Source of the DNA: Puniceicoccaceae bacterium
GTDB taxonomy: Bacteria > Verrucomicrobiota > Verrucomicrobiia > Opitutales > Coraliomargaritaceae
Direction of reading: 5' to 3'
Length of the DNA: 32,000 nucleotides
Assembly: GCA_018402305.1 (NCBI GenBank)
Contig: JAGYJE010000013.1
Span: forward strand, 50,790 to 82,789
Part shown: one piece after another, positions 3,328-27,421 of the stretch
Layout of the letters: each line of letters opens with the position of its first letter
Numbering within the stretch: position 1 is the stretch's first letter
The notes under the pieces: model-generated
Seen by the model: the letters and a program-made list of their open reading frames with translations, nothing else
The model's database searches: none
What the model was told of the DNA's origin: nothing
Program-made: the position numbers and the translations under genes

Positions 3328-5661
3328 ATGCCGAAACCTTCGCCCACCCAAACCAAGCATTCCCGACCCAACGCCTTGGAAATGTTCACAGACCGAGTCT
3401 CGGAGCAGGCGATTCTCGCCCGTCTGCTCGCGCCTTCCAGCGCTATTACGGCTCAAAACACGGATTTCCTGACGGTCTTTTATGGTGTCGGCGGTGTGGG
3501 GAAAAGCACGCTTTGCCGGCGAGCAATGGAGACTTGCGCCGAGACCCATCAAAAAGTCGTTGTCGCCCTGATTAACCTCGATACCAATCTATGGAACACA
3601 AAGTCGCCCTTCGCGCACTTGATCGGGGAATTGGTCCACTCCCTCCTCGCGAAGGGAGTCCAGACCCGCCTCGCCCAGGCGCTGCTACTGATTTACTCCC
3701 GTGTCGATGCCGCATTGCCACTTCGTGAGGAGTCCTCGGCTGTCTGGCAGGGCGCCCTCTCTGTGCTCGACCAAGCCACGCAGACTATCGGCATCCCAGG
3801 CTTCTCTCTCGTAGTGCAAGGTGCCCAATGGCTCAAAGACCGAAAAGAGCAGTCAGATACCGAAACTCGATTAAAGAGGCTCGGTCTCTGGCCAGATTGG
3901 CTGGACGGAAAAGTGAATCTAGCCGACCTCGAGAAAAAGCTCGGATTGGCGCTCTTTGAGGACCTTCGTGATTGGTCCGGTAAGGAAGGTCACCTGCGCT
4001 TCTTGATTGATGGCTTCGAACGGATTCAGGGGCACGAGCGCCACGAGGACTGCCAACTCCGGCTCCAGCAATTCATTGGCTACTTTGCCGCCGACGAGGA
4101 TGCAGTCCTTAGGTCGCGATTGCGCTTCTTCATCTTTGGCCGTGAAAAACTCCGCTGGGACGAACTCTACGAGGATCCATCGTGGAACGACTACTGGACG
4201 CAGCATTTGCTCGGTGGACTCGGCGAAGCCGATGCCCGTGATTACTTGCGCAAACACGCACAATGGCTCGAGGACCACGGGGATCCGGTTTCCGGCAAGG
4301 CGGTGATCAATCACTCAGAGCGCATCCTCGATGCCGCAGATGAACGGATTCACAACGAGCGCACAGTCTACCCATTTTACCTCGAACTCGCTGTTGAAAT
4401 GGTCCGCGACGGCGCGCGCGCGGGCCAAATCCCCGACCTCGGCCGCACTCCGACCGAACTCCGCGACCGCTTCCTCCGCTACTTGCCCGAAGCCGACGGT
4501 CACTTGCTCAAGATCCTCGCTCTCGCGGAGACCTTCGATGCGGATATGTTCGATGCCCTTGTCCGCGAACAACGCGTCACCGGCCACGTGGTCGGGGGCT
4601 TTCGCACGGCGGTGGCGGAAGGGCGCTCGTATGTGATCTGCTCCGAAGGCTGCTGCCGATTCCACCGCCTGATGGAAGATGCCCTCCAAGACCAATGGCT
4701 ATTATCACAACCGAACCGCGAGCAGGGATGCAAATTGGTTGCGTGGCTTCTTGAACATCTTGCCACTCGATTCCAAGGAAAGCAACGCAAGGATTGGACA
4801 GCGGAAGATCTGGATATCTGGAGGCGCGGAGTGGAAATCATCATTTCCCAGGGCGAGGAGCTTGACCTCATGGATCGAAAACAAACCGATGATTTGCTTT
4901 CCGGGGAGCCTTGGAAGATCAAATTCCCGGCCACTTTCGATTCACAAGAAGCATTTTCGAAGAGAATATTGGAAAGTAGAGAAAAAGCCCTCGGGGCGGA
5001 GCATCTTGATACCCTGATGAGCGTCAACAATCTCGGGAATCTCCTGAGCGACAAAGGCGACTACGACGGGGCCGAGGCGCTCTACCGCCGCGCTTTGGAG
5101 GGCAAGGAAAAAGCCCTTGGGGCCGAGCATCCCGATACGCTGAGTAGCGTCAACAATCTCGGGAGTCTCCTAGGCGACAAAGGCGACTACGACGGGGCCG
5201 AGGCGCTCTGCCGCCGCGCCCTGGAGGGCTATGAAAAAGCCCTCGGGGCAGAGCATCCTGATACGCTGACTAGCGTCAACAATCTCGGGAATCTCCTGAG
5301 CAACAAAGGCGACTACGACGGGGCCGAGGCGCTCTACCGCCGGGCCTTGGAGGGCAGAGAAAAAGCCCTAGGAGCCGAGCATCCCGAAACTATAGCTAGT
5401 GCCTATTCATTGGCTTCTATGATCAATCGTCGCAACCGCCGTCCCGAAGCTATAGCACTCCTCCGCCGCTTCGCCTCATTCTCCGCCGCCTCCCGCGACG
5501 GCGTCGCCTACAATCTCGCCTGCTACGAATGCCTCGAGGGCAATCTTGAAGAAGCCAAGCGCCTGATCTCCGAACACCTCCAACTGCATCCCGAGAAGAA
5601 AGATCAAGCACTCGCGGATGAGGATTTTGCCGCCATTCATGATTTTATCCGATCGCTGTGA
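3328..5661 (+). CDS. STAND-type P-loop NTPase with C-terminal kinesin-light-chain-type TPR repeats; no N-terminal effector domain
   Basis: Uninterrupted 777-aa ORF. It has a pre-Walker motif FTDRVSEQAILARLL, Walker A VFYGVGGVGKSTL and Walker B-like LRFLIDGFERI. About four 42-aa TPRs follow (ALGAEHPDTLxSVNNLGxLLxxKGDYDGAEALYRRALEG), then a capping helix region YNLACYECLEGNLEEAKRLISEHLQLHPEKK. Its stop TGA (5659-5661) overlaps the GTG start of the next gene. Confidence 0.85.
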   Translation: MPKPSPTQTKHSRPNALEMFTDRVSEQAILARLLAPSSAITAQNTDFLTVFYGVGGVGKSTLCRRAMETCAETHQKVVVALINLDTNLWNTKSPFAHLIGELVHSLLAKGVQTRLAQALLLIYSRVDAALPLREESSAVWQGALSVLDQATQTIGIPGFSLVVQGAQWLKDRKEQSDTETRLKRLGLWPDWLDGKVNLADLEKKLGLALFEDLRDWSGKEGHLRFLIDGFERIQGHERHEDCQLRLQQFIGYFAADEDAVLRSRLRFFIFGREKLRWDELYEDPSWNDYWTQHLLGGLGEADARDYLRKHAQWLEDHGDPVSGKAVINHSERILDAADERIHNERTVYPFYLELAVEMVRDGARAGQIPDLGRTPTELRDRFLRYLPEADGHLLKILALAETFDADMFDALVREQRVTGHVVGGFRTAVAEGRSYVICSEGCCRFHRLMEDALQDQWLLSQPNREQGCKLVAWLLEHLATRFQGKQRKDWTAEDLDIWRRGVEIIISQGEELDLMDRKQTDDLLSGEPWKIKFPATFDSQEAFSKRILESREKALGAEHLDTLMSVNNLGNLLSDKGDYDGAEALYRRALEGKEKALGAEHPDTLSSVNNLGSLLGDKGDYDGAEALCRRALEGYEKALGAEHPDTLTSVNNLGNLLSNKGDYDGAEALYRRALEGREKALGAEHPETIASAYSLASMINRRNRRPEAIALLRRFASFSAASRDGVAYNLACYECLEGNLEEAKRLISEHLQLHPEKKDQALADEDFAAIHDFIRSL
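4981..5390 (+). repeat. Tandem 126-bp coding repeats (about 3.25 copies) encoding 42-aa TPR units
   Basis: Units start at 4981, 5107, 5233 and 5359, each beginning gaaaaagccctXggggc.gagcatc. Copies are nearly identical at the nucleotide level. The fourth copy diverges after about 30 nt. Confidence 0.9.
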
Positions 5662-8600
5662 CCACGCCATCCCGCACTGTCCGCGTATTCCTGAGCAGCA
5701 CCTTTCGCGACTTCGCCGAAGAGCGGGATCTGCTGGTCCGAAAGGTCTTTCCTGAGCTTCGACGCAAGTGCCGGGAGCGCCAAGTCGAGTTGGTGGACGT
5801 CGACCTGCGCTGGGGCATTACCGAGGAGGAGGCCCAGCAAGGCAAGGTGCTCCCCATTTGCCTTGCCGAGATAGATCGTTCGCGCCCATATTTCATCGGT
5901 CTATTGGGCGAGCGCTACGGTTGGGTGCCGGAAAAAGACCTGTATGATTCGTCGCTCTTGCTAGATCAGCCATGGCTTGAAGAGCACCGGGGCGGCAAGA
6001 GCGTGACCGAACTTGAGATCCTCCATGGGGTCCTCAACAACCCTGAAATGGCAGGCCACGCATTCTTTTATTTTCGGGATCCGGCCTATTCGTCGCGAAA
6101 AGGCGGTGACTACCTGAGCGATGGGGAGGAAGAGCGGATTCGCCTTGCCGCGCTAAAGGGCCGCATCCTGCGCAGTGGATTCCCGTTGGTCGAAAACTAC
6201 CCCGGACCCGAAGCGCTGGCAGAACGGGTGCGCGATGACCTTTGGAAACTCATCGACAAGACTTTTCCGGAGAGCGAGGTGCCCGACTCCCTCGCACAGG
6301 AACGCATGCAGCACGAGGGGTTCGCCTCTTCGCGACTCGGTCTCTACATCGGCGGAGAGTGTTATCTGCGGGCGCTTGATGCCGCGATCTCCGCGGATCC
6401 TCGCAAGCCGGTCCTGGTGTGCGGCGCTTCGGGCGGCGGCAAGAGCGCGCTTCTCGCAAACTGGGCCCAAAAGTATTCCCTGGCAAATCCCGAGGCGATC
6501 GTGCTTACCCACTTCCTCGCCACAGGAGCCGATGCTGCCCATTCGGTCAACATGGTTATCCGCCTTCTGCGGGAGATTTCGCGAATGACCGGCGAGGAAC
6601 TCGTGCTTGATGGCGATCCACGTAGGGCGCTTCCGATGCTGGAGGAGTGGTTGGAAAAAGCCGGGAATTTCGCCCATGAAAAAGGCGGCGTTTTTGTCCT
6701 CCTGCTGGACGCCCTCGACAAGATGACCGTGCACCGAGACCTCGACTGGTGGCCGAAGCGCTTGCCGGAAGGAGTCGCCCTCGTAGCCTCGTGCCTTGAT
6801 GGTGGCGTGCGCGACTCCGTAATGCCGAAAATGGAATGGACCGAATTGCGCGTCTCGCCGCTCGAGCGATCGGATTGCGAGAGATTCATCCGCGAACATC
6901 TGGCGAAATACCGCAAGTCGCTCACGCCGCAGCAAACAGCCTTGGTTCTGGGGCATCCGCTTTGCGGGAATCCCCTCTTCCTGCGGACTTTGCTCGAGGA
7001 GCTTCGCATCTTCGGAGTCCATGAAGAACTCAATCTCCGGCTCAAGCACTACACCGAGAGCGTTACCATCGATGACCTCTTCGAGAAAGTGCTCGAACGA
7101 GTGGAGTCCGACAACTCGCCAGAATCGGTTCGTGCGGCCTTGGAGGTGCTCTGGGCGGCAAAAGAAAGTTTCGCCGAGGATGAACTTCTTGCCGTCTCTG
7201 GATTGCCCCCGGCGGTTTGGGCTCCTATCCACATCGCCCTTGACGAATCACTCATTGGGGCAGGACGACGACTCGCCTTCGGCCACGACTACCTGCGAAA
7301 GGCCGTCGAGGACCGCTACCTTGACACGACAGAAGACCGGCAGCGTATTCAAAAATGCATGGCGCAACTCTGTGCCAAAGCGATGGTCACAGGTCGCAAG
7401 GAAATCTCCCATTATATCCGCCGCCATGCGGTGGAGCATTTCCTGGAGGCGGAGGATTGGGATAACGCCGCAGGTGCCTTGTCGGATCTGGAATTCATCG
7501 AGGCCCGAGCCATCGCGCAGGAACTGCCCTCTATGCTCAAGGACTATGCCGGGGCCGTGAAGTTGCTTCCCGAGGGCGAAAAGCAGCGCCAAACGGAAGC
7601 GGCCCGGCAGGCGGAGTTGGACCGCTACGCCAAGGAAATGGCGGAATACGCCGCCACATGGTCGCGCATCCGCGATGGGAGCGGCGAGAATGAGCCCATT
7701 CTACCCCAACCGCCACTTCAGGTGCGACTATGGACCCGCGAGGAAATCGCGGCGGAGCGCAAACGCATGACGGAAAAGCCCAATCGTTTGGACATCGTCA
7801 AGGCGTTCCGCGTGTTCCTTGCCACCCATGCGACCCCGCTCCAGAAATATGCCACGAGCAGGGGCTTTGCTGCCCACCTCGCCAGAAACGAGACTCCAGC
7901 GGGGCCTGTGCACGACGTCGGTGAGAGACTGCTTGAGTCATTGGATGGCATTAAACTCCTTAGGCAATACCAAACCGGGGAAACATACAATCCACTTCCC
8001 GCCTGTCAGGCTGTGCTCGAGGGGCATATGGATGAGGTCAATGAACTCGTCCTGAGCGCAGATGGAAGGCGTGTCATTTCGGGGAGCAGGGATAATACCA
8101 TTCGCGTGTGGGATTTGGAGAGTGGCGAGTGCCTGAAGGTGCTTGGGGAGGCGGGACTCTGGAACGGGGTAAATCGCGTGCTGAGTGTGGACGGAAGACA
8201 TGTCGTTTCGAGCACGTTACATACCATTTGCGTTTGGGATGTGGAGAGCGGAGAATGCCTAAAAGAATTCGAGCATGTGTGGTATTACGGGCATGTGCGT
8301 CGTGCTTATTATTATGATGTCACCTTCTTCCTTCTGAGCACGGATGGAAGACGTGTCATTTCGGTGAGTAAAGGCCGCATGCAGAACGTGCGACTGTGCG
8401 TGTGGGATGTGGATAGCGGCGAGTGCCTGAAAGTGCTCGAAGGGAATACAGGCGCGGTCAAGTCCCTCGTCCTTACCGCTGATGGAAAGCGTGTCATCAC
8501 GGAAAGTTTCTTCCCCGCGCAGGGGGAGTGGAATCAGGAGAGCAAAGCTTTTCAAGAAGCGGAGCGTCCTTCTTCCTCCACGCTACACGTGTGGGATGTG

Positions 8601-11129
8601 GAGAGCGGAAAGTGCCTGAAGGTGCTCGAAGGGCATACAGGCGTGGTCAAGTCCCTAGTCATTACCGCAGATGGAAGGCGTGTCATTTCGGGGAGCTATG
8701 ACAATACCATTCGTGTTTGGGATTTGGAGGGCGGCGCTTGCCTGAAGGTGCTCGAGGGTCATACATGCGGTGTCAATACTATTGTCCTGAGAGCGGACGG
8801 AAGGCGTGTCATTTCGGGGAGCGATGACAATACCATTCGCGTGTGGGATTTGGAGAGTGGCGAGTGCCTAAAGGTATTCGAGGGGCATACGGGTGCGGTC
8901 GAATCACTCGTTCTGAGTGCGGATGGAAGGCGTGTTACTTCGGCGAGTTGCGACAATACCATTCGCGTGTGGGATGTGGATAGTGGCGAGTGTCTGAAGG
9001 AGTTAGACGTGCCGGCGGGTAAGTTTTTTTCGTCGATAACGTGTCTCGTGCTGAGCGCAGATGGAAGGCGTGTCATTTCGGGGAGCGGGGATCATACCAT
9101 TCGTGTTTGGGATTTGGAGAGTGGCGAGTGCACGAAGGTGCGGGAGAGGTATCCAGGTGCGTTCGTCCTGAGCGCGGATGGTAGGCGTGCCATTTCGATG
9201 AGGCACGGGGCTGGCCTTCGCATGTGGGATTTGCAGAGTGGCGAGTGCCTAAAGGTGCACGATGGGCATACGAGTAGGATCGAGTCCCTCGTCCTGAGTG
9301 CGGATGGCAAACGTGCCATTTCGATGATGTATGGGGATGCCCTTCGCATGTGGGATGTGGAAAGTGGTGAGTGCCTGAAGGTGTTTGAGGGGCATACAGT
9401 CGAGCTAACGAGTGGACCTCAGTATGCGAGCAATTGCCTTGTCCAAAGCGCGGATGGCAGGCTTGTCATTTCAGGGGACAGGGACGATACCATTCGCGTG
9501 TGGGATGTGGAGAACGGCGAGTGCCTGAAGGTGCTCCAGGGGCACTCGGATGGGGTTAAGTCCATCGTCCAGAGCGCGGATGGAAGGCGTGTCATTTGGG
9601 GGAGTAATGGGAATACCATTCGCGGGTGGGATGTAGAGAGCGGAGAGCATCTAGATTTTGACGGCTGGCATGCTGCTACAGTAAAGTCCCTCGCCCTCAG
9701 TGCGGATGGAGTGCGTGTTGTATCTGGTAGCAAAGACAAGACCATTCGCGTGTGGGATGTGGAGAGTGGGTCGTGCGTGGGGGTGTTCGAGGGGCATGCG
9801 GATGCGGTCGAGTCCCTCGTCATGAGCGCGGATGGAAGGCTTGTTGTATCGGGAAGCGGGGACCACACCCTGCGCGTGTGGGATTTAAGTAGGATGTGGG
9901 AGAGCAACGAGTGCGTGAAGGTGCTCGAAGGGCATGCAGGCGCGGTCAAGTCCCTCGTCCTTACCGCGGATGAAAAGTGTGTCATTTCGGGGAGTGAGGA
10001 CCATTCCATTCGTGTTTGGGATTTGGAGAGCGGAGAGTGCCTCAAGGTGCTTGAGGGGCATACGGGCGGAGTCGATCCTATGGTCCTGACCGCGGACGGA
10101 AAGCGTGTCATTTCGGGAGGTGAGGACCACACGCTGCGCGTGTGGGATTTGGAGAGTGGCGAGTGCCTGAAGATACTCGAGGGGCATACAAGTGGGGTCG
10201 AATCCCTCGTTCTGACCGCGGATGGAACGCGTGTCACTTCGGCGAGCTGGGACAATACCATTCGCGTGTGGGATGTGGAGAGTGGCGAGTGCCTGGAGGT
10301 GCTCGAAAGACATATGGATGGGGTCACATCCCTCGTTCTGACCGCAGACGGAAAGCGTATGGTATCGGGGAGTTGGAACCATTCCCTACGCTTCTGGGAT
10401 GTGGAGAGCGGCGAGTGCCTGAAGGTAATCGAGGGGCGTACGGATGGAATCAGGTCCCTCGTTCTGAGTGCGGACGGAAGGCGTATCGTTTCGGAGAGTC
10501 GGAACCACACCTTGCGCGTGTGGGATGTCGAGAATGGCGAGTGCCTGAAGGTGCTCGAGGGGTATATGGATGAGGTCAAATTCCTCGTCATAAGCGCGAA
10601 TGGCAAGACTGTTATATCGGGGCATAGAGATAAAATTCGCGTGTGGGATGTGGAGAGTGGAGTGTGCCTGAAGTCGCTAGAGGGGATGCGGCAAAAATGG
10701 ATCACGGATGAACCAACCGATCTCTTCGGGCTCTCCTCTGACACAGTCTATTCGTTCGTCGTGAGCGCGGATGGCAGAAGTGTTATATCGGGGTATAGCG
10801 ATAAGATTCGCGTGTGGAATGTAGAGAGTGGAGAGTGCCTGAAGGTGCTAGAGGGGCATATGGCTGAGGTCGAGTCCCTCGTCCTGAGTGCCGATGGAAG
10901 GCGCGTCATTTCGGGGAGTGACGACAGCACCTTGCGTGTGTGGGATCTCGATTCCGGGGAATGCTGTGGTGTATTTTTTGTGCGAGGTCATTCCTCCATA
11001 GCATTTCACTCGGGATCCGGGAGGTTGATTGTCGGTTTTTCGGATGGCCGCGTTGAGTTTTACAATATTCTGAGGCTTACACTTGACTCCTTCATTCCGC
11101 AGTCCGCGGATGAGGTCATACCTAATTAG
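5658..11129 (+). CDS. NLR-like protein: DUF4062-like N-terminal module + NACHT-type NTPase + helical linker + about 22 WD40 repeats (NWD1-like architecture)
   Basis: Uninterrupted 1823-aa ORF. The GTG start at 5658 is supported by the paralogue at 19030, which begins ATG with the identical MTTPSRTVRVF. The N-terminal module reads VRVFLSSTFRDFAEERDLLV..VDLRWGI..FIGLLGERYGW..GGKSVTELEILHGVL..FFYFRD. Walker A is VLVCGASGGGKSALLANW (G..S at 6423-6446) and Walker B is VFVLLLDALDKM. Conserved motifs LVASCL and GNPLFLRTLLEELRIFG follow. From about aa 787 there are repeated GHxxxVxSLVLSADGRRVISGSxDNTIRVWDLESGECLKVLE units. Confidence 0.9.
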   Translation: MTTPSRTVRVFLSSTFRDFAEERDLLVRKVFPELRRKCRERQVELVDVDLRWGITEEEAQQGKVLPICLAEIDRSRPYFIGLLGERYGWVPEKDLYDSSLLLDQPWLEEHRGGKSVTELEILHGVLNNPEMAGHAFFYFRDPAYSSRKGGDYLSDGEEERIRLAALKGRILRSGFPLVENYPGPEALAERVRDDLWKLIDKTFPESEVPDSLAQERMQHEGFASSRLGLYIGGECYLRALDAAISADPRKPVLVCGASGGGKSALLANWAQKYSLANPEAIVLTHFLATGADAAHSVNMVIRLLREISRMTGEELVLDGDPRRALPMLEEWLEKAGNFAHEKGGVFVLLLDALDKMTVHRDLDWWPKRLPEGVALVASCLDGGVRDSVMPKMEWTELRVSPLERSDCERFIREHLAKYRKSLTPQQTALVLGHPLCGNPLFLRTLLEELRIFGVHEELNLRLKHYTESVTIDDLFEKVLERVESDNSPESVRAALEVLWAAKESFAEDELLAVSGLPPAVWAPIHIALDESLIGAGRRLAFGHDYLRKAVEDRYLDTTEDRQRIQKCMAQLCAKAMVTGRKEISHYIRRHAVEHFLEAEDWDNAAGALSDLEFIEARAIAQELPSMLKDYAGAVKLLPEGEKQRQTEAARQAELDRYAKEMAEYAATWSRIRDGSGENEPILPQPPLQVRLWTREEIAAERKRMTEKPNRLDIVKAFRVFLATHATPLQKYATSRGFAAHLARNETPAGPVHDVGERLLESLDGIKLLRQYQTGETYNPLPACQAVLEGHMDEVNELVLSADGRRVISGSRDNTIRVWDLESGECLKVLGEAGLWNGVNRVLSVDGRHVVSSTLHTICVWDVESGECLKEFEHVWYYGHVRRAYYYDVTFFLLSTDGRRVISVSKGRMQNVRLCVWDVDSGECLKVLEGNTGAVKSLVLTADGKRVITESFFPAQGEWNQESKAFQEAERPSSSTLHVWDVESGKCLKVLEGHTGVVKSLVITADGRRVISGSYDNTIRVWDLEGGACLKVLEGHTCGVNTIVLRADGRRVISGSDDNTIRVWDLESGECLKVFEGHTGAVESLVLSADGRRVTSASCDNTIRVWDVDSGECLKELDVPAGKFFSSITCLVLSADGRRVISGSGDHTIRVWDLESGECTKVRERYPGAFVLSADGRRAISMRHGAGLRMWDLQSGECLKVHDGHTSRIESLVLSADGKRAISMMYGDALRMWDVESGECLKVFEGHTVELTSGPQYASNCLVQSADGRLVISGDRDDTIRVWDVENGECLKVLQGHSDGVKSIVQSADGRRVIWGSNGNTIRGWDVESGEHLDFDGWHAATVKSLALSADGVRVVSGSKDKTIRVWDVESGSCVGVFEGHADAVESLVMSADGRLVVSGSGDHTLRVWDLSRMWESNECVKVLEGHAGAVKSLVLTADEKCVISGSEDHSIRVWDLESGECLKVLEGHTGGVDPMVLTADGKRVISGGEDHTLRVWDLESGECLKILEGHTSGVESLVLTADGTRVTSASWDNTIRVWDVESGECLEVLERHMDGVTSLVLTADGKRMVSGSWNHSLRFWDVESGECLKVIEGRTDGIRSLVLSADGRRIVSESRNHTLRVWDVENGECLKVLEGYMDEVKFLVISANGKTVISGHRDKIRVWDVESGVCLKSLEGMRQKWITDEPTDLFGLSSDTVYSFVVSADGRSVISGYSDKIRVWNVESGECLKVLEGHMAEVESLVLSADGRRVISGSDDSTLRVWDLDSGECCGVFFVRGHSSIAFHSGSGRLIVGFSDGRVEFYNILRLTLDSFIPQSADEVIPN
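8016..11080 (+). repeat. Array of about 22 WD40-encoding units (mostly 126 bp) with near-identical scaffold nucleotides and localised variable codons
   Basis: Strings such as gatggaaggcgtgtcatttcggggagc and accattcgcgtgtgggat(g/t)tggagagtggcgagtgcctgaaggtgctcgagggg recur throughout. I counted 22 xVWDxxSGEC motifs in the translation. Some units carry insertions, for example FFPAQGEWNQESKAFQEAERPSSS and GMRQKWITDEPTDLFGLSSDTVYSF. Confidence 0.9.
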
Positions 11130-14460: not shown

Positions 14461-16923
14461 ATGCCCACTCCATCCCGACTCGTCCGCGTCTTTATCAGCT
14501 CCACCTTCCGCGATTTCATCCAGGAGCGGGACGAGTTGGTGAAGAAGGTGTTCCCCGAGCTTCGGCGTCGGGCGAAGGAGCGTTTTGTGGAAATTTTGGA
14601 GGTGGATCTGCGCTGGGGGATTACCGAGGAGCAGGCGAAGGGGGGCGAGACTTTGCGCATTTGTCTTGAGGAAATCGATCGGTGCCGACCGAGCGCACCG
14701 GTCTTCTTCATTGGATTGCTGGGCGAGCGTTACGGATGGATTCCGGAGAAAGACTACTTCAAGCCCGATGTTTTGGAGGATCCCAAGCTGGGATGGGTCA
14801 AAGAGCACATTGTCGAGGGCAAGAGCGTGACCGAACTTGAGATTCTGCACGGTGTCTTGCGCAATGATGAGATGCGCGACAAGGCATACTTCTACTTCCG
14901 TCAGGACGGCTACGAGCAGAGGCACTGGAGCAAGATCGAGAAGCATCACGCCGCCGCGAACCCTCCGATCACCCGGGAGGATTTTACCAATGCCAAATCA
15001 GAAAATCCCGAGGCCGATGAGGAGAAGCAGCGGGATCTGAAGCGCCGGATTCGCGATACCTCCTTGCAGTGGGATCCCAAAGACTACGAGACGCCGGAGG
15101 ATCTTGCCGCACTGGTCGCATCGGATCTTTGGGATGCCATCGATCGTTTGTTTCCGATCAGCGCTGTTCCGGATGCGCTCGAACGCGAGAGTCTCGAGCA
15201 CCGCGTGTTCATGGAGAGTCGCACCCGGGCGTATGTTGAGCGGGAAGGGCTTTTTGAGAAACTGGACGAATTTTTCCTCCTGCCCAACCAGGCATTCAGG
15301 CAGGAAACTTCAGCAGATGAAGCCGAACAGGAAGAGGAAGATGAACCGGATTCCGCACCCACTCCCCCGTCTGTCCGCGTTGTCCTGGGTGAGTCGGGTA
15401 GCGGCAAAAGCGCGCTGCTTGCCGCATGGCTGAAGCGTCGGGATGAGGATGTGGCGTTTTTTCATTTCGTAGGATCGACTCCATCGAGCGTCTCCGCATC
15501 CTCTTTATTGCGGCGCATGCTTGCCACGTTGCGCAGCAGGGGAGTCGTGCCGGCTTCCGAGGCGATTCCTCATGCTGACGAGGCAATGGCCGAGCTGCTT
15601 CCTTTTTGGCTGGAGAAGCTATCGGAGCGGGGCGGGGGCATCCTGCTGTTTGATGCGGTCAACCAGCTCGGCTCGGCGCGCGACCGCGAGCTTTGGTGGT
15701 GGCCGGACAAATGGCCGGAAAACATTCGTGTCGTTTTCAGCACGCTGCCGGGTGACTCACTCCGTGCGATGGAAAAGCGCGGTTGGAAGGGCGAAGAGTT
15801 CGTGTTGCGCATTCCGCCATTCCAGCCCGAAGAGAAGCGCGAAATGATCAACCGTTACATGAAGGATCTGTTCGCCCGCGAGATGGAGGCGAACCTTCAA
15901 CAACTCATCCTAAACGCACCGCAGACTTCCAACCCACTCTTCCTGCGCACCGTGCTTGATGAATTGCGCGTGCGCTCGGCCTTCGGCACGCTCGAGAAAG
16001 ACCTCGATGAGATGCTGAGTTGTCCTGACCCAGCGGCACTCTTCGTCCATGTGTTGAAAAATCTTGAACGGGATTTCTCTCCTCCTGAGCATCCGGATCT
16101 GGTTCATCGCGCTCTTGGTTTGATGGGAGTGGCTTTGCGCGGACTTTCCGAAAACGAAATCCTGCAGCTTCTCTCCGCGTCGCCCTATCCTTCTGGCGAG
16201 CCTCTTCCGCGGCACTACTGGGCACCTCTCTATCTCGCTCTGGAGGAGTCACTGGTAAGCCGCGAGGGACAACTGAGCTTCTTCCACGATTACCTGCGCT
16301 CTGCCATCTGGCGTGAATATCTCGACGAGGACCACGAGCTTGAGACAGCCCATGCCAGACTTGCTGAGACCGTCACCCGCTGGCGGGAGCCGGATGCCTT
16401 CGGATCAAGCCTCCGCGCCTATGGCTTCGAATACGGGATCCGCCATTTGCTTGACATACGGCGGGTCGATGATGCCACGGATATGATTTTGGATCAAAAC
16501 TACCGCCGCCGGGCTGTCGAAAGCACCAGGCAGGCATCCGCAATCGAGGAGGATGTCTCTCGCCTTCGGCGTGCAGTGGCTTTACAGGCAAATTTCAGTC
16601 ACGAAGTGGCTGCCTTGCTTACCATCCAGGCTCTCGTCGGAAAAACGGAACCCGAGTGCCATCTGCGTAGCCGACTCGATGCAGCCGCTGCCAGCGGAGA
16701 TTGGGAGGAGGCTCTCGGAATTGCCGGTGCTCAGGAGGACAATTCACTCCGCATCCTTCTCGCCTGCCGGGCGCTGCTCCAGTCCCCGGGTGTTCTTTCC
16801 GAAATCCAGAGTGGCCAGATCAGCGACGTCACCCATCGTTGGGCAAAAGCCACAGGCAAGCCCGAGTGGGAAGAAGCAATCCACCTGGTGCTTGAAGTCA
16901 AATCACAACCCTCATCCCCATAA
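14461..16923 (+). CDS. NLR-like protein: DUF4062-like N-terminal module + NACHT-type NTPase + alpha-helical C-terminus, with no repeat sensor domain
   Basis: 820-aa ORF. The N-terminus reads MPTPSRLVRVFISSTFRDFIQERDELV..VDLRWGITE..FFIGLLGERYGW..GKSVTELEILHGVL..YFYFRQ. Walker A is VVLGESGSGKSALLAAW and Walker B is ILLFDAVNQL. The motifs IRVVFSTLPGD and SNPLFLRTVLDELRV follow. No WD40, TPR, LRR or HEAT periodicity is visible in the last about 300 aa. Confidence 0.9.
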   Translation: MPTPSRLVRVFISSTFRDFIQERDELVKKVFPELRRRAKERFVEILEVDLRWGITEEQAKGGETLRICLEEIDRCRPSAPVFFIGLLGERYGWIPEKDYFKPDVLEDPKLGWVKEHIVEGKSVTELEILHGVLRNDEMRDKAYFYFRQDGYEQRHWSKIEKHHAAANPPITREDFTNAKSENPEADEEKQRDLKRRIRDTSLQWDPKDYETPEDLAALVASDLWDAIDRLFPISAVPDALERESLEHRVFMESRTRAYVEREGLFEKLDEFFLLPNQAFRQETSADEAEQEEEDEPDSAPTPPSVRVVLGESGSGKSALLAAWLKRRDEDVAFFHFVGSTPSSVSASSLLRRMLATLRSRGVVPASEAIPHADEAMAELLPFWLEKLSERGGGILLFDAVNQLGSARDRELWWWPDKWPENIRVVFSTLPGDSLRAMEKRGWKGEEFVLRIPPFQPEEKREMINRYMKDLFAREMEANLQQLILNAPQTSNPLFLRTVLDELRVRSAFGTLEKDLDEMLSCPDPAALFVHVLKNLERDFSPPEHPDLVHRALGLMGVALRGLSENEILQLLSASPYPSGEPLPRHYWAPLYLALEESLVSREGQLSFFHDYLRSAIWREYLDEDHELETAHARLAETVTRWREPDAFGSSLRAYGFEYGIRHLLDIRRVDDATDMILDQNYRRRAVESTRQASAIEEDVSRLRRAVALQANFSHEVAALLTIQALVGKTEPECHLRSRLDAAAASGDWEEALGIAGAQEDNSLRILLACRALLQSPGVLSEIQSGQISDVTHRWAKATGKPEWEEAIHLVLEVKSQPSSP

Positions 16924-16931
16924 ATTCCGCC

Positions 16932-19029: not shown

Positions 19030-21657
19030 ATGACCACACCATCCCGCACTGTCCGCGTCTTCCTCAGTTCCACCTTCCGCGATTTCGCCGAAGAGCGGGA
19101 TTTGCTAGTGAGGAAGGTTTTTCCTGAATTGCGTCGAAAGTGCCGGGAGCGGCAAGTCGAGTTAGTGGACGTGGACCTGCGCTGGGGTATCACAGAGGAA
19201 GAGGCCCAGCAGGGCAAGGTGCTACCGATCTGTCTCGCAGAGATCGACCGCTCACGGCCTTATTTCATTGGCTTTCTCGGGGAACGCTATGGCTGGATTC
19301 CTGATCAATCAGAGTATGACCTCTCACTCCTGTTAGAGCAATCGTGGCTGGAGGAGCACAGGGGAGGCACAAGTGTCACGGAGTTGGAAATCCTTCACGG
19401 CGTGCTCAACAATCCCCAGATGGCCGGGCGGGCCTTGTTCTATTTCCGCGATCCAGCCTGGTCGGAAGGAAAGGGCGAGGCATATGCGAGCGAGAGCGAT
19501 GACGAAAAAGCAAGAGTCTCCTCGCTGAAAGACCGGATCCGAAAAAGCGGGTTTCCCGTGGTTGAGGACTACCCCGACCCCGAGGCGTTAGCAGAGCGCG
19601 TGCGGGAAGACCTTTGGCAATGGATCGATGAGACTTTTCCGGAGGATTCCGTGCCTGACTCGCTGACACGCGAGAGGTTAAAGCACGAGGCCTACAGCGC
19701 ACCCCGGCAACGTCTCTACATCGGTGGCGAAGAGTATTTTAAGGCCTTGGATAAGGCGATGAGTGCGCAGAATTTTCTCCCTGTGCTGGTTACCGGTCAG
19801 TCCGGCGGTGGCAAGAGCGCCTTGCTTGCCAACTGGGTTCCTCGCTGGAGCAATCTACACCCGAAAACCTCGGTGATCCTGCATCACCTCGGCGCCGGAG
19901 CTGATGCGGCGGACCCGGTGCGGATCGTGGTGCGTCTGATACAGGAAATCGCCTGCCTGACCGGAGATGAATTCAAGCCGGAGAGCGATCCGGAGAAACA
20001 ATTGGAGGAATTGCCCCAATGGTTGGCGCTGGGCAGTGCTTGGGCAGAGCGGGAAGGGCGTGAACTGCTGCTCGTGCTGGATGGGTTGGACAAGGTATCA
20101 GACCTGAAAGACCTGCGGTGGTTCCCGTCATTCCTGCCGGCAAAGGTGAAGCTGGTGGTGTCCTGTCTTGAGGGGACGATTCTGCAGGCTGCGAAAGGTA
20201 GATTGGAATGGAGGGAAATCGAAGTTAAGCCCTTCACACCCGCCGATCAGTTGCGCTTTATTGGTGAATACCTGCTACGCTTCCGCAAATCGCTCACGCC
20301 AACACAAACCAGTATCCTACAAGGACATCCCCTGAGTGGTAATCCGATGTTTCTACTGACCGTGCTGGAGGAGTTGCGGGTGTTCGGCATGCATGGGCAG
20401 TTGGACCAACGCCTGCAGAAACTGCTATCTCCGCCACTAAGCAAGGGCAAAAGCGAGGCGCCGACGGTGGACGACGTGTTTGAGCATGTGCTGGCCCGGA
20501 TTGAGGAAGACCTCGGCAAGCAAGTGGTTAAGGCTGCCGTGGAAGCGATCTGGGCGAGTCGTGGTGGATTGTATCGGGAGGAGTTGTTAGGGGTGGCACA
20601 GTTGACGCCAGCCGCTTGGGCGTCGCTGCAGATCGTGCTGGATGAAGGACTCTACGAAAGCGGCGGGCGGATCAATTTCGGTCACGACTACCTGCGCAAG
20701 GCGGTGGAAGACCGCTACGACCTCACGGGCGAACGGAAAATAAATCTGCACCGACGCTTGGCCGAATATTTCGCCACCCTGCCGGTGGATGCGCGAGTGG
20801 CCGAGGAGCTCCCGTGGCAGTGGGAACAGGCAAGTAATCGAAAGAAACTCAAAGCGTGTCTGACTGACCTCGAGCTGTTTGCGGCAATGATGAATCGCAA
20901 CGAATATGAACTGTTGGGCTATTGGCTGCGTCTTGGATGCGACATTAGCACAGAGTATGAGACAGCTTGGCTTCAGTGGGAGCTTGAAGGAGAAATAATG
21001 GCATCAATCGGGGCAGGTCTGGCAAATTTTCTTCATACAGCTGGCCGATACACGACGTTTGCGCCGTGGATTCAGGAAGAAGTGCTGCAGTTGAGGCGTG
21101 AGAAACTTGGCATTGAGCATCCGGATACGCTGAGCGCGATGGGTAATCTCGCCCTTTACTACTCGGATGCGGGTCGACTGGAGGAGGCGCTGTGGATTCA
21201 GGAAGAAGTGCTGCAGCTGATACGTGAGAAACTTGGCATCGAGCATCCGGATACGCTGAGCGCGATGGGTAATCTCGCCAGATCCTACGCGCATGCCGGT
21301 CGGCTGGAGGAGGCGCTGGGGCTTTGGGAAGAAGTGCTGCAGTTGAGGCGTGAGAAACTTGGCTTCGAGCATCCGGATACGCTGCGCGCGATGAACATCC
21401 TCGCCGGCTGTCTGAACGCCCTCGATCGCCGATCTGAATCTATTACATTGCTTCGCAAAGCATCGGCGGAGTCTTCTCTCGTTTACGACGGCGTTGCCTA
21501 CAATCTCGCCTGCTACGAATGCCTCGAGGGCAATCACGAGGAAGCTAGGCGCCTAATCTCTGAGCACCTCAAGCTGCATCCAGAAAAGAAAGAGCAAGCC
21601 CTCGCGGATGAGGATTTTGCGGCGATTCACGATTGGATTTCTGAACTTGAGGTATAG
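19030..21657 (+). CDS. NLR-like protein: DUF4062-like N-terminal module + NACHT-type NTPase + KLC-type TPR repeats
   Basis: 875-aa ORF. The first 81 aa are identical to the 5658 gene product. Walker A is VLVTGQSGGGKSALLANW and Walker B is LLLVLDGLDKV. The motifs VKLVVSCLEG and GNPMFLLTVLEELRVFG follow. There are three 42-aa TPRs (WIQEEVLQLRREKLGIEHPDTLSAMGNLAxxYxxAGRLEEAL). The C-terminal cap YNLACYECLEGNHEEARRLISEHLKLHPEKK is nearly identical to that of the 3328 gene. Confidence 0.9.
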   Translation: MTTPSRTVRVFLSSTFRDFAEERDLLVRKVFPELRRKCRERQVELVDVDLRWGITEEEAQQGKVLPICLAEIDRSRPYFIGFLGERYGWIPDQSEYDLSLLLEQSWLEEHRGGTSVTELEILHGVLNNPQMAGRALFYFRDPAWSEGKGEAYASESDDEKARVSSLKDRIRKSGFPVVEDYPDPEALAERVREDLWQWIDETFPEDSVPDSLTRERLKHEAYSAPRQRLYIGGEEYFKALDKAMSAQNFLPVLVTGQSGGGKSALLANWVPRWSNLHPKTSVILHHLGAGADAADPVRIVVRLIQEIACLTGDEFKPESDPEKQLEELPQWLALGSAWAEREGRELLLVLDGLDKVSDLKDLRWFPSFLPAKVKLVVSCLEGTILQAAKGRLEWREIEVKPFTPADQLRFIGEYLLRFRKSLTPTQTSILQGHPLSGNPMFLLTVLEELRVFGMHGQLDQRLQKLLSPPLSKGKSEAPTVDDVFEHVLARIEEDLGKQVVKAAVEAIWASRGGLYREELLGVAQLTPAAWASLQIVLDEGLYESGGRINFGHDYLRKAVEDRYDLTGERKINLHRRLAEYFATLPVDARVAEELPWQWEQASNRKKLKACLTDLELFAAMMNRNEYELLGYWLRLGCDISTEYETAWLQWELEGEIMASIGAGLANFLHTAGRYTTFAPWIQEEVLQLRREKLGIEHPDTLSAMGNLALYYSDAGRLEEALWIQEEVLQLIREKLGIEHPDTLSAMGNLARSYAHAGRLEEALGLWEEVLQLRREKLGFEHPDTLRAMNILAGCLNALDRRSESITLLRKASAESSLVYDGVAYNLACYECLEGNHEEARRLISEHLKLHPEKKEQALADEDFAAIHDWISELEV
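21067..21444 (+). repeat. Tandem 126-bp coding repeats (3 copies) encoding TPR units
   Basis: Units start at 21067, 21193 and 21319. The string caggaagaagtgctgcag(t/c)tga..cgtgagaaacttggcat.gagcatccggatacgctgagcgcgatgggtaatctcgcc is almost identical in copies 1 and 2. Confidence 0.9.
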
Positions 21658-21676: not shown

Positions 21677-24600
21677 ATGTCCACTCCATCCCGCCTCGTC
21701 CGAGTTTTCATCAGTTCCACCTTCCGTGACTTCATGGGAGAGCGGGATGAACTCGTGAAGCGTGTGTTTCCTGAATTGCGACGTCGATGCAAGGACCGGT
21801 TCGTCGAGATCGTCGAGGTTGATCTCCGTTGGGGCATCACCGAGGATCAGAGTCGGGAGGGGGCAACCCTGAAAATCTGCCTTCAAGAAATCGACCGTTG
21901 CCGTCCGAGCGCCCCGGTTTTTTTCATAGGATTGCTCGGTGAGCGCTATGGCTGGGTTCCGCCGAATGATTACTATCCGACGGAGATTCTGGATGATCCG
22001 GAACTGGCGTGGGTGCGGGAACACATCGGAGGCAAGAGTGTCACCGAACTGGAAATCCTCCACGGAGTGCTCAACAATCGGAATCTGAAAGACCATGCCT
22101 TTTTCTATTTCCGTCAGGATGGTTACCAAATCCGTCACTGGGCGCGGATCCATCAGGATTATCCGGATCTGGTGCCGGAAGATTTCACTAACGAGCGCGA
22201 ATCCGACCCAGTATCAGCGCGCGCCAAACAAGATTCACTCAAAGAAAGGGTAAATCAAGCCGATCTCAGTCATGCTCCGCGGCTCTATGAGGAACCCGGA
22301 GAACTCGTTCGGATCGTGCTGGAGGATCTCTGGCTCCAGATTGAGAGGGTTTTCCCCGCGAGCGAGGTCCCCGACGAGCTTGAGCGAGAACGCCTCGACC
22401 ACGAAGCCTTCGCAAAAAGCCGACTTAAGGGATATGTGAGGCGGCCCCTCCTTCTTCATGCGCTGGACGAGATCCTCGACCCCGGAGGTCCTTCCATCAA
22501 GGTCGTTACCGGCTCCTCTGGCGGAGGGAAAAGCGCGTTGCTAGCCTACTGGGTGGACCTGCGGTCGGACCGCATTCCACCCTGCACCTTCGTGCATTTC
22601 ATCGGCGGAACACCGGAAAGCGGCACGTTGCCGAATCTGGTGTTTCGACTCATGCGGACGATCCAGCGCTGGGGTGCAGTCCAGGACCGGGTGCCCGACG
22701 ATCTGTCCGAGGCGATCGCGGCTCTTCCGCAATGGCTTACGAGGACGGTGCAGGCCCATGGAGAGGTTCTCATTGTTCTCGATGCGCTCAACCAACTGGA
22801 GGAGGAGAGCGCACATCAGCTGTCCTGGCTACCTGCAGAAAACATTCCCGGGGTGCGTTGGGTGGTAAGCACACTCCCAGGTCTCTGTCAGGATGCCCTA
22901 ACGATAAGAGGGTGGGCGACTTCGCGTTATACCGTCGAAGTTCCTCCTCTCGAGCGCGGGGAGCGGGCCAGCATCGTCGAGTCCTATCTCGCGCTTTTCA
23001 CGAAGCGACTCGATGTGCGTCTGGCGGAGCGGCTCGCTGCGTCACCCCAATCGGAAAACGCCCTATTCTTGAAGGTCGCGCTCGACGAATTGCGGATTCG
23101 AGGCCGTCACGAGGCCCTCGAAGAACTGATCGACCGCATCCTCGCCTGCCCAGGCCCTGTCGATCTGTTTGTCCTCGTTCTGAAAAGTCTTGAGGAATTC
23201 GACAAGGATCGGCCTGATCTTGTCCGCGAATCGCTCGGGTTGCTCTGGGTGGCGCGACGCGGTCTGACTGAAACCGAACTCCTCCAGCTTCTTTCCGGCC
23301 ACGAGAATCCCGCAACCCACCCTCTACCGCGCGCTCTTTGGTCCCCAATCTTTTTAGCACTTGAAGGTTCTCTCGTCGAGCGCAACGGGCGTTTGAGCTT
23401 TTTCCATGATTTTCTCAGAGAAGCGGTCGCGCGTGAATACCTCGACGAGGAATGGGAGCGGCACAGGGTGCATTCCCGTTTCACCACATTGGCTCGCCGA
23501 TTGTTGAACGGAAAGTCGGCTGGGGCAACCCTCGATCACTATCTGGCTCGGTATGCCAGTCATCACGCGGGTGCCCTCGGGGATTTACCAGCGTTGGCAG
23601 AATTCGCCGTCTCCTTCGCGCCTTCTCGGTTTGAGATGCTCTCACTTTCCGAGGGAGTTTTATTGGTATCGGAGGCCTGTATGACCCTTGGGGTCTCAGA
23701 TAAATTTAGCGACGATCCCAGATTTCTCAGCGACGTTGCCGTTCTCCTTGAAACGGCGCGCGCACCAGAGATTACCCGTTCCATTTGCCGTAAGTTGATC
23801 CGGGCCGGGAACGGGTGGCGAGAGGCCTTCCAAGGGGCGGGACTCGATGGACGTGGAGCCACCTATGTCTTCGCCGCAGAGTGGGCTGCGTGGATCCAAG
23901 AACTTCCGCCGCAACAAGCAGAAGAAGAAATCGAGTTCATCATCGAATCGATGGATGACATCGATGGCGGTCTTGCTCAAGCGGCAATCTACGCTTTTAA
24001 ATACGCGATCATTGCAAATCCCGAGCGCTTCACGATCAGTCTCCTCGAGCAGGTCTTTAGTGGTTGGCAGGAAAACCGTCTCATGCTGAACAACCTCGTG
24101 ATGCAACTGGCCATCGATGGTCTCCATCTGCCGGTGGTGGATGACTTCGAGCGTTTCTGGAGCGTGACATGGGAATACAACGCGGTCGAACTCGACTTGC
24201 TGAAGGGCGCCCTCGCTTTCCGCAACCTACCCAGTCCCCATCGGGATGAGGTTGCAGCTGAGTTCTTTCGACATCTCGAGCAAAGGCGCTCTGGTTTTCA
24301 ACTTACGCCGGACTGTTTTGCATCGCGCCGTATCTTAGACTGCTTTTGGTCGCTGGGCCAGACAGGAGACAGCCTTTCGGATGACCTGAGGACTTGCCTC
24401 CGCGAGCGGCATGGTCAGGAAATCTTGGAACTGCTGCTAGAATCTCCGTTTTGGGAGGTGGGTGAAAAGGCTGCCGAAGTGCTCTCCGAGAAGATGGACT
24501 TGTGCGAGGCGATGCGTGACCGCATCCGCGATCTGGCCCTTGACGTGGATGGAGCTCCCGCCTATGCCGTCTTTATTGCCTATTCCCTATGGGCCTTGCG

Positions 24601-24985
24601 TGCTGGGGAAACTGAGGATTATCTGCATCTCGTTGAAGCTTGTTCCCTTTCATCGAATTGTCAGGTCCGCGGCCAAGCTGCCGAATCGCTCATGTCCTTC
24701 CTACGAGACTGCGGCGACGGTAGCCTCGGAGATTATTTCTCAAAGGCCCTTCCGTCGCTGCGGCGCTTCTTGCATGATTCCGACATCTGGCCAGTTCAGG
24801 AAACCCTGCACAACCTCCAGTCGCTTGACGACCGCCTCGCCATTGCAGGGATCGATTGGCGGAGTCATCTCCGCCCCGATCATGCGCCGCTCGTCTCCCT
24901 CGTTGGCGAGTGGGAGGCGATCGGACCGGATTGGATGAAGTTTGAAGAAATCGCACGAATCCGACAACAGCAGGCCATTCCCTGA
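21677..24985 (+). CDS. NLR-like protein: DUF4062-like N-terminal module + NACHT-type NTPase + long helical region ending in HEAT-like repeats
   Basis: The ORF is open from 21608. ATG 21677 gives MSTPSRLVRVFISSTFRDF, aligned with the three paralogues, and leaves 19 nt after the upstream stop. Walker A is IKVVTGSSGGGKSALLAYW and Walker B is VLIVLDALNQLEE. The motifs VRWVVSTLPGL and ENALFLKVALDELRI follow. The C-terminus has HEAT-like motifs: SPFWEVGEKAAEVL, SSNCQVRGQAAESL and DSDIWPVQETLHNL. Confidence 0.85.
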   Translation: MSTPSRLVRVFISSTFRDFMGERDELVKRVFPELRRRCKDRFVEIVEVDLRWGITEDQSREGATLKICLQEIDRCRPSAPVFFIGLLGERYGWVPPNDYYPTEILDDPELAWVREHIGGKSVTELEILHGVLNNRNLKDHAFFYFRQDGYQIRHWARIHQDYPDLVPEDFTNERESDPVSARAKQDSLKERVNQADLSHAPRLYEEPGELVRIVLEDLWLQIERVFPASEVPDELERERLDHEAFAKSRLKGYVRRPLLLHALDEILDPGGPSIKVVTGSSGGGKSALLAYWVDLRSDRIPPCTFVHFIGGTPESGTLPNLVFRLMRTIQRWGAVQDRVPDDLSEAIAALPQWLTRTVQAHGEVLIVLDALNQLEEESAHQLSWLPAENIPGVRWVVSTLPGLCQDALTIRGWATSRYTVEVPPLERGERASIVESYLALFTKRLDVRLAERLAASPQSENALFLKVALDELRIRGRHEALEELIDRILACPGPVDLFVLVLKSLEEFDKDRPDLVRESLGLLWVARRGLTETELLQLLSGHENPATHPLPRALWSPIFLALEGSLVERNGRLSFFHDFLREAVAREYLDEEWERHRVHSRFTTLARRLLNGKSAGATLDHYLARYASHHAGALGDLPALAEFAVSFAPSRFEMLSLSEGVLLVSEACMTLGVSDKFSDDPRFLSDVAVLLETARAPEITRSICRKLIRAGNGWREAFQGAGLDGRGATYVFAAEWAAWIQELPPQQAEEEIEFIIESMDDIDGGLAQAAIYAFKYAIIANPERFTISLLEQVFSGWQENRLMLNNLVMQLAIDGLHLPVVDDFERFWSVTWEYNAVELDLLKGALAFRNLPSPHRDEVAAEFFRHLEQRRSGFQLTPDCFASRRILDCFWSLGQTGDSLSDDLRTCLRERHGQEILELLLESPFWEVGEKAAEVLSEKMDLCEAMRDRIRDLALDVDGAPAYAVFIAYSLWALRAGETEDYLHLVEACSLSSNCQVRGQAAESLMSFLRDCGDGSLGDYFSKALPSLRRFLHDSDIWPVQETLHNLQSLDDRLAIAGIDWRSHLRPDHAPLVSLVGEWEAIGPDWMKFEEIARIRQQQAIP

Positions 24986-26805: not shown

Positions 26806-26821
26806 GGAATCAATTAAGAAA

Positions 26822-27421
26822 ATGCTCTGGAGTAACAACAAACTAATCGAGTTAATAGAAACTGACGATTTTGAAAAATTTGAGAAGGAATTCTCCAAGA
26901 AAAAAGACAAGACGGAGAGAACTCGCTATCTGAAATTTCCAGATTGGACTTATCTGCATATTGCCTGCAATAATAAGGCACTGGGAGTTGTTAAATCCAT
27001 ATTTAAGATATTTTCAGATTTCCCGGTGGATATCCAAGACGAACGAGGTATGACGCCTCTCCTAAGAAGTATCGCCAAGGAGGATTTCGAAACGGTCAAA
27101 TACTTGATCTCCAGAGGAGCTAGCCTGGATGTAACGGTCAATAACGATGTCAAAGTCATTCATTACGCGATACAGAATGGTAATCCGGATTTGCGGACTT
27201 TCTGTATCAATGAATACGGCCCACACAATCTGGACAATCTGGCTTATCTATCCATAGCTCAAATTTTGAATGTGCAGGAAATAATGCGGCTGAAGACTTT
27301 AGGGGTTGAGTTTGATCCTGCCAAATTAAAAGAGATTATCATACGAGTGATTTTATCTGATGATAACGAAGAGCACATCCTTGAAAACCTTCATTATTTT
27401 CTCGATCAAAAATTAAAATGA
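26822..27421 (+). CDS. Ankyrin-repeat protein
   Basis: 199-aa ORF starting 16 nt after the previous stop, in an AT-rich islet. ANK-like units are YLHIACNNKALGVVKSIF, ERGMTPLLRSIAKEDFETVKYLISRGASLDV and VIHYAIQNGNPDL. Confidence 0.7.
   Translation: MLWSNNKLIELIETDDFEKFEKEFSKKKDKTERTRYLKFPDWTYLHIACNNKALGVVKSIFKIFSDFPVDIQDERGMTPLLRSIAKEDFETVKYLISRGASLDVTVNNDVKVIHYAIQNGNPDLRTFCINEYGPHNLDNLAYLSIAQILNVQEIMRLKTLGVEFDPAKLKEIIIRVILSDDNEEHILENLHYFLDQKLK

Follow-up and report, generated by a model that had tools for sequence, protein, structure and literature searches.

How can two neighbouring genes specify the same 80 amino acids at the start of their products when close to half of the codons that encode them are different? 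The question is raised by a 32,000-nucleotide stretch of DNA from a Puniceicoccaceae bacterium of the Verrucomicrobiota (contig JAGYJE010000013.1, positions 50,790 to 82,789 of the forward strand; assembly GCA_018402305.1), which we analysed as a whole and refer to as the window. It contains four paralogous genes (starting at 5658, 14461, 19030 and ~21677; here genes A to D) with an N-terminal DUF4062 domain, recently renamed NIR, ahead of a NACHT-type NTPase, and the two segments with identical products lie at the 5' ends of genes A and C. Our analysis makes it probable that an old exchange of this 5' region between paralogues was followed by near-total constraint, and shows the segment in question to be one half of the NIR effector domain of NLR-like STAND proteins. 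Coordinates are collected in Table 1.

Codon comparison of the two segments

The start codon is GTG in gene A (5658) and ATG in gene C (19030), and codons 2-81 of both genes encode the same 80 residues (TTPSRTVRVFLSSTFRDFAEERDLLVRKVFPELRRKCRERQVELVDVDLRWGITEEEAQQGKVLPICLAEIDRSRPYFIG). A codon-by-codon comparison bears out what the initial annotation of the window had read there: 42 of the 80 codons are unchanged and 38 are synonymously different, exactly the number it had given as an estimate, and no nonsynonymous change had been missed. The switches that it listed, AGC/TCC (Ser), CGA/AGG and CTT/TTG, are present at codons 14, 28 and 34, the earliest replacement is indeed L versus F at codon 82, and the Pfam architectures agree that the protein of gene A ends in WD40 and that of gene C in TPR repeats. 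Over the 243 nucleotides (nt) of the segment there are 42 nucleotide differences (82.7% identity), and the longest exact run is 20 nt. The two genes are on the same strand, 13 kb apart.

The serine at codon 14 (5697-5699) belongs to an SSTF motif and is invariant. It is encoded by AGC in gene A and in both paralogues from JAIXOU01 (L001 and L005), and by TCC or TCG in the other nine members of the clade examined, gene C included; the codon family has therefore switched at a strictly conserved serine. Dual coding was rejected, as the open reading frames (ORFs) antisense to the two segments do not share a frame and lack conservation.

The DUF4062/NIR half-domain

The products of genes C, B and D match the Pfam family PF13271 (E=1.3e-13, 4.2e-14 and 6.8e-13 respectively, all over the 24.7-bit cut-off); PF13271 is absent among the 25 Pfam families listed for gene A, a list filled by WD40 families, but the product of gene A has residues 1-81 in common with that of gene C. 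Residues 6-181 of gene A match the structure of the human TEP1 NIR domain (PDB 11gz_A) in a single-sequence phmmer search (E=2e-33), and 34 of 76 segment residues (45%) are the same in human TEP1. The chain offset of 893 in 11gz_A was checked, and with it TEP1 R908, R954 and R976 land on Arg residues. The alignment places R908 at R17 (in the motif STFRD), R954 at K63 (in the BB loop), R976 at R86 (GERYG) and E1008 at E120 of gene A, and R17 and R86, the counterparts of two active-site arginines found to be important in TEP1, are kept in both A and C. The motif around E120, SVTELEILHG, is present in all four paralogues, and across 88 homologues S115 and T117 never vary, with E118 and E120 kept in at least 90%.

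An AlphaFold2 (AF2) model of gene A residues 1-191 (predicted local distance difference test, pLDDT, 88) has an alternating strand-helix topology, with strand A at residues 7-13, helix A at 17-40, strand B at 44-49, the BB loop at 50-63 including a short helix at 56-60, helix B at 64-72, strand C at 78-83, the E120-bearing helix at 116-126 and strand D at 135-140. A Foldseek search of the PDB (entries to April 2026) with this model returned generic Rossmann-like matches with E>0.02 and no TIR domain, so the assignment to the family rests on sequence. From strand A to strand C, the 81 residues make up the first half of the DUF4062/NIR domain, and not a whole module as had been proposed in the initial annotation, for the segment stops inside the domain, at strand C. 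It holds the STFRD phosphate-binding motif with R17, helices A and B and the BB loop, and the catalytic glutamate at codon 120 is outside it.

Three 2026 preprints (including bioRxiv 10.64898/2026.05.01.722283 and 10.64898/2026.09.04.749371) describe DUF4062, under the new name NIR, as a TIR-like NADase effector. They report that other family members hydrolyse NAD+ into ADP-ribose plus nicotinamide and that the activity needs a catalytic glutamate (PsAvs2 E108, KpSwz E97, TEP1 E1008). An Avs2 protein and the Swarozyc, Vulcan, Vesta and Evangelion systems carry the domain as their N-terminal effector, and it is also found in human TEP1, NWD1, NWD2 and NPHP3. The dimer interface of KpSwz is built from helices A and B, and the BB loop is regulatory (bioRxiv 10.64898/2026.05.01.722283, 10.64898/2026.09.04.749371). 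An early guess that the segment belongs to an effector that is catalytic or oligomerises, with turnover of NAD+, agrees with this reported function, which by analogy would extend to the proteins in the window.

The window proteins have in common with the NIR NADases PsAvs2, KpSwz, Vulcan, Vesta, Evangelion and TEP1 the STFRD arginine, the GxRYG arginine and the catalytic glutamate (in TELE), and PsAvs2 has the same arrangement of an N-terminal NIR domain ahead of a STAND NTPase and C-terminal repeats. They are nearer to TEP1 than to KpSwz (a profile of gene A and its homologues gives E=6e-44 and E=0.047 respectively). A bacterial TEP1-like lineage of DUF4062 proteins that have NACHT and WD40 domains is named in the Evangelion preprint, and the window proteins resemble it.

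Constraint and a probable old exchange at the 5' ends of genes A and C

Divergence was estimated by the Nei-Gojobori method (NG86) and by maximum likelihood (ML) with a pairwise codon model of the GY94 type with F3x4. The homologue sets comprise 95 other homologues for site variability, the 12 closest relatives, the 88 used above for motif conservation, and 15,571 pairs for the relation between NACHT and segment identity. By NG86 the segments of A and C have a proportion of synonymous differences (pS) of 0.64 and a synonymous divergence (dS) of 1.41, with no real replacement, and nonsynonymous divergence (dN) between the two genes is 0.155 in codons 82-140, 0.33 in the linker and 0.58 in NACHT. 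ML gives dS 1.55 and a dN/dS ratio (omega) of 0.0075 for the segment. Low segment omegas recur in other pairs (A-L002 0.016, C-L003_10001 0.011, C-L003_6344 0.044 and L001-L005 0, all by ML), and NACHT in the same pairs, where estimable, has omegas of 0.10-0.31. The comparison of dN/dS between segment and NTPase that the initial annotation had proposed thus places the segment (0.0075-0.044) below NACHT. Among the 15,571 homologue pairs the segment retains ~63% identity where NACHT identity is down to 25-35%. No other part of these proteins is as constrained as the segment, and purifying selection on it is very strong. Synonymous change is extensive: 48% of the conserved degenerate codons differ between A and C, compared with 64% expected at saturation from the codon usage of the window.

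Codons 82-140 (5901-6077 versus 19273-19449) have synonymous differences at or above the saturation expectation, with transversions at 12 of 20 fourfold degenerate sites, and their synonymous divergence exceeds that of the NACHT region; the NG86 pS of ~1.0 for these codons is not interpretable, and an ML profile was used instead.

Extreme purifying selection had been offered as the cause of the identity. The selection itself stands, given the very low omega; as a complete explanation it is insufficient in view of the breakpoint at codon 81, the contrast in dS and the discordant trees, and an old exchange between paralogues better accounts for the stop at that codon. Site variability in the 95 other homologues is similar on the two sides of codon 81 (two homologues differ on average at 0.37 per site in residues 2-81 and at 0.43 in residues 82-140; 0.19 and 0.24 in the 12 closest relatives), yet each of the 13 A-C replacements that residues 2-140 contain is located beyond codon 81 (P=4e-5 to 1e-4), and selection alone is therefore not enough. 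The dS contrast points the same way. The profile likelihood of segment dS peaks at 1.5 with support from ~0.9 to 3.5, and saturation is disfavoured by 3.0 log-likelihood units; the A-C flanks are saturated, with lower bounds on dS of ~8 for codons 82-240 and ~6.5 for codons 241-560, and a common dS for segment and flanks is rejected (p ~0.014, likelihood-ratio test).

The third line of evidence is the discordance between segment and NACHT. NACHT sequences form an A-like group (A, L002, L001, L078 and L079; 68-88% identity within) and a C-like group (C, L003_6344, L005 and L004; 70-93% within) that are 42-50% identical to each other; A and C share 49% identity here, and A and its orthologues share 72-80%. 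The segment follows a different pattern, with no differences among A, C and L003_10001, none between L001 and L005, the A-like and the C-like gene from a single metagenome-assembled genome (MAG), JAIXOU01, and 3-6 differences when A is compared with its own orthologues. In the 1,770 homologue pairs at 45-55% NACHT identity the median number of segment differences is 18/76 and the first percentile lies at 5; A-C and C-L003_10001 are the sole pairs with one difference or fewer. In the quartet of A, C, L001 and L005, segment residues contain seven sites grouping by genome and none grouping by orthology, compared with 1 and 68 in NACHT, and third codon positions of the segment also group by genome (11:1:1). 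The L001/L005 pair has dS 0.5-0.7 and one replacement in 139 codons.

Several observations weigh against an exchange. A Sawyer-type runs test (401 polymorphic sites, 2,000 permutations) does not find a conversion tract between A and C (P=0.24), and as there is no A-C trace at the nucleotide level the case for exchange consists of the breakpoint, the discordant phylogeny and the difference in dS. That difference is only moderately significant and relies on the F3x4 codon model near saturation. The by-genome signal in the quartet comes largely from the younger L001/L005 pair, and quartets built with orthologues from separate genomes are weak at the nucleotide level. Even after an exchange, a dS of ~1.5 over ~180 non-synonymous sites at omegas of 0.011-0.044 predicts 3-12 replacements where none is seen, so that zero is at the low end and some extra constraint may act in this lineage. 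A defence role, which forms part of the mechanism proposed below, is not helped by PADLOC-DB v2.0.0 (2023), in which no model matches the NIR-NACHT cores: genes B and D have no match, gene A matches only a repeat model and gene C has a weak match to STAND_TPR (E=4.7e-4).

The strongest competitor, which we nonetheless regard as unlikely, is that purifying selection kept the 81 residues unchanged in both genes ever since A and C duplicated, with no exchange at all. A segment omega that is very low in every comparison, synonymous divergence near saturation, an undetectable A-C tract and the AGC/TCC switch at Ser14, which implies long divergence under constraint, would all be expected on this account. 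It has difficulty with the variation of these same residues elsewhere, where A and its orthologues differ at 3-5 of 76 positions, B and D at 14 of 80, and pairs of equal NACHT identity at the median given above. Residues 82-140, barely more variable in the family, hold every one of the A-C differences; the segment dS is finite where the rest of the pair is saturated; and scaling by NACHT dN (0.58 versus 0.15) predicts ~11 replacements in the segment rather than none.

Somewhat less probable again is a selection for compatibility, in which the NIR half-domains of co-resident proteins (helix A, BB loop and helix B) are kept identical as they must co-assemble into mixed active oligomers or answer to a shared regulator. 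Any replacement arising in one copy would on this view be opposed by selection or followed by a matching one in its partner. The segment does span the parts that make up the dimer interface and the regulatory loop of KpSwz, and two genomes display the pattern, with 0/80 replacements at dS ~1.5 for A/C and 1/139 at dS 0.5-0.7 for L001/L005. Residue states are genome-specific, and the absence of replacements falls short of the 3-12 expected from family omega. L003_10001, a gene of another genome, has the same segment protein allele as A and C, which fits very strong constraint in the lineage and leaves room for a compatibility constraint. The other co-resident copies argue in the opposite direction: A or C differs from B or D at 23-29 of 74-80 aligned positions, the adjacent L003 pair differs at 5/80, six other same-contig pairs differ at 8-42/76, and L136, L102, L147, L151 and L141 show 8-30/76. 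The grouping of third positions by genome in the quartet moreover points to shared ancestry and not to convergent replacement. A general rule that co-resident paralogues match is rejected, most same-contig pairs differing at 8-42/76.

A recent A-C gene conversion, possibly followed by synonymous recoding selected to suppress recombination between neighbouring repeats, is very improbable, for although tracts are detectable among related paralogues and the two genes share a strand at a distance of 13 kb, 42 changed positions in 243 nt at dS ~1.5 effectively refute a recent event and the longest run of 20 nt is that given by random placement of 38 changed codons. Its exclusion in the initial annotation is upheld by these figures and by the runs test. 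Selection for synonymous recoding was rejected as well: the fraction of changed codons, 0.48, is below the 0.64 of saturation, and there is no accelerated or patterned synonymous change.

Exchange followed by constraint, our preferred account, would have run as follows. An old recombination or gene conversion event would have put one 5' tract, from the start to about codon 81, into both A and C, the donor being either of the two or a third paralogue that supplied both; the event would have taken place long after the A/C duplication. Since then an omega of ~0.01 or less would have let synonymous sites drift to dS ~1.5 without amino-acid change. The extreme constraint plausibly arises because the half-domain unites substrate-binding residues, a regulatory loop and a dimer interface. 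By analogy with PsAvs2, KpSwz and TEP1, a WD40 or TPR sensor would bind a trigger and the NACHT module would oligomerise, so that the NIR domains cluster and are freed from autoinhibition by the BB loop; hydrolysis of NAD+ into ADP-ribose plus nicotinamide would then lead to its depletion and to abortive infection.

Exchange among related genes is evident in other comparisons. Gene C and L003_6344, its counterpart in Akkermansiaceae UBA956, are ~97% identical over nt 541-1900, ~84% identical over nt 1-540 and unrelated after nt 1920, with dS of 0.09-0.21 in the linker, NACHT and winged-helix regions and 0.68-0.99 in the NIR domain, which suggests that the NACHT core alone was recently transferred or recombined; the L072 pair has the same mosaic structure. 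The C-terminal TPR regions of gene C (19030-21657) and L003 6344-9904 are unrelated (the proteins have 875 and 1186 amino acids, aa), and their surroundings are otherwise non-homologous. Significant tracts do emerge from the runs test for other pairs, namely the adjacent paralogues L003_10001 and L003_6344 (codons 18-40), L003_10001 with C (codons 48-65), and L002 with L003_10001 (codons 60-73); for each, a run as long was reached in 0/2,000 permutations. Metagenome pairs (L085_442/L083_10001, and L128 or L131 versus L111) have 0-2 differences in the NIR domain with NACHT only 42-55% identical. Near-identical NIR domains on divergent NACHT regions in these further pairs indicate that exchange of the NIR domain between divergent NLR-like genes is recurrent.

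The gene cluster, its relatives and its significance

Table 1. Positions of the genes, domains and segments discussed, numbered from the first nucleotide of the window.
Feature	Coordinates	Strand	Basis
Gene E, STAND (AAA_16) and TPR, without NIR domain	3328..5661	+	Pfam; stop overlaps gene A start
Gene A, NIR-NACHT-WD40, 1823 aa, TEP1/NWD1-like architecture	5658..11129	+	Pfam; Walker A 6423-6446
Gene A codons 1-81, N-terminal half of DUF4062/NIR	5658..5900	+	Codon comparison; AF2 secondary structure
Complete DUF4062/NIR domain of gene A, ~residues 1-190	5658..6230	+	TEP1 match; AF2 pLDDT 88
Gene A codon E120, motif SVTELEILHG, aligned with TEP1 E1008	6015..6017	+	Alignment to 11gz_A
Gene B, third NIR-NACHT paralogue, 820 aa	14461..16923	+	Pfam; segment 71% identical to A and C
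Gene C, NIR-NACHT-TPR, 875 aa, NPHP3-like architecture	19030..21657	+	Pfam; Walker A 19795-19818
Gene C codons 1-81, same half-domain	19030..19272	+	Codon comparison with gene A
Complete DUF4062/NIR domain of gene C	19030..19602	+	PF13271 E=1.3e-13; alignment to gene A
Gene C codon E120, equivalent catalytic-Glu position	19387..19389	+	Motif SVTELEILHG
Gene D, fourth NIR-NACHT paralogue	21677..24985	+	Pfam; segment 69% identical to A/C, 82% to B

Genes A to D have weak NACHT, AAA_16 and NPHP3-type NTPase matches C-terminal of the NIR domain, with NACHT scores at the Pfam cut-off (26.5-26.7 bits versus 26.7). The Walker A motifs are GASGGGKS and GQSGGGKS, and effector, STAND NTPase and C-terminal repeats are combined within one protein. 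The repeats of gene A number ~15 WD40 units with Pfam matches to the NWD2 and TEP1 beta-propeller families, and gene C has TPRs with matches to NPHP3 TPR and HTH_NWD1. The sensors of the cluster are thus WD40, TPR, a separate LRR protein and one unrecognised, the last being the C-terminal ~500 aa of paralogue D (23480-24985), where Pfam recognises no repeat or sensor domain.

The LRR protein is encoded by a separate 691-aa ORF that begins 8 nt after the end of gene B (window 14461-19007). A NIR-NACHT gene followed by an LRR gene (~40% identical) is also present in L009 (~15099-10397, minus strand) and L049 (10001-16043), and because the same two-gene order recurs, gene B and the LRR ORF look like a genuine split NLR and not a frameshift. 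The stop of gene E and the GTG start of gene A share the sequence GTGA (5658-5661), which suggests translational coupling. In L001 and L002 the A-like gene, and in L005 the C-like gene, has TPR sequence resembling window 4970-5390 directly upstream. ORF 279-869, where the STAND cluster borders on other sequence, encodes an IS66-family transposase leucine-zipper/homeodomain (PF13007), so that a mobile-element remnant adjoins the island. Directly 3' of paralogue D (25081-27421) are genes for a protein with TrkA_N and RyR domains (574 aa) and an ankyrin-repeat protein (199 aa).

The closest relatives are MAGs of freshwater Verrucomicrobiota. A scan of metagenomes yielded no orthologue of gene A closer than 75%, and so no unsaturated orthologue calibration of the A segment. 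Targets in the initial homologue search were all 251 aa or shorter, either because the search prefers targets of like length or because many of them are fragments, and this search was used for segment variability and not for architectures. Many of the best NIR matches are proteins of 135-250 aa (P0004, P0005, P0009 and P0073), some on contigs of 40-317 kb; these may be stand-alone NIR proteins or split genes, or they may reflect a bias of the search to short targets.

The layouts of gene A (NIR-NACHT-WD40) and gene C (NIR-NACHT-TPR) are like those of the eukaryotic proteins NWD1, NWD2, TEP1 and NPHP3. Against these similarities, no TROVE domain was seen in the window proteins, and the window holds four paralogues and a STAND gene without NIR domain in 22 kb, with sensors that differ from copy to copy. 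With Avs and bNACHT proteins they share the layout of effector, STAND NTPase and repeats, the Walker A motif GxxGGGKS and weak NACHT and AAA_16 matches, but they have no match to the known Avs families in the PADLOC 2023 models. Domain-specific gene conversion has been described in the NLR-B30.2 genes of zebrafish, where domains of the same gene have different genealogies (bioRxiv 10.1101/027151). As in the zebrafish NLR and the fungal nwd/HET-e genes, homogenisation here would be limited to part of the gene, the NIR tract as opposed to NACHT, whose histories are discordant. The zebrafish genes differ in having low synonymous divergence and ongoing conversion, whereas the tract in A and C has reached a great age (dS ~1.5) and persists as protein identity only; the A-C breakpoint is moreover inside a domain and not at an exon or domain boundary. 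What we describe is a known kind of process, domain-restricted exchange combined with constraint, acting on a recently characterised domain.

These comparisons place four uncharacterised Verrucomicrobial NIR-NACHT genes in the NIR/DUF4062 family. Their NTPase, their sensor repeats and half of their effector domain have separate histories, and this implies that bacterial NLR repertoires are built by intragenic recombination, much as the NLR families of fish and fungi are. The half-domain, with no replacement at dS ~1.5, marks where substrate binding, autoinhibition and oligomerisation overlap in the NIR fold, and is a useful guide to mutagenesis of TEP1, NWD1 and the bacterial systems. Should selection for compatibility prove to be true, the half-domain would in addition be a genome-wide 'common currency' on top of ordinary constraint.

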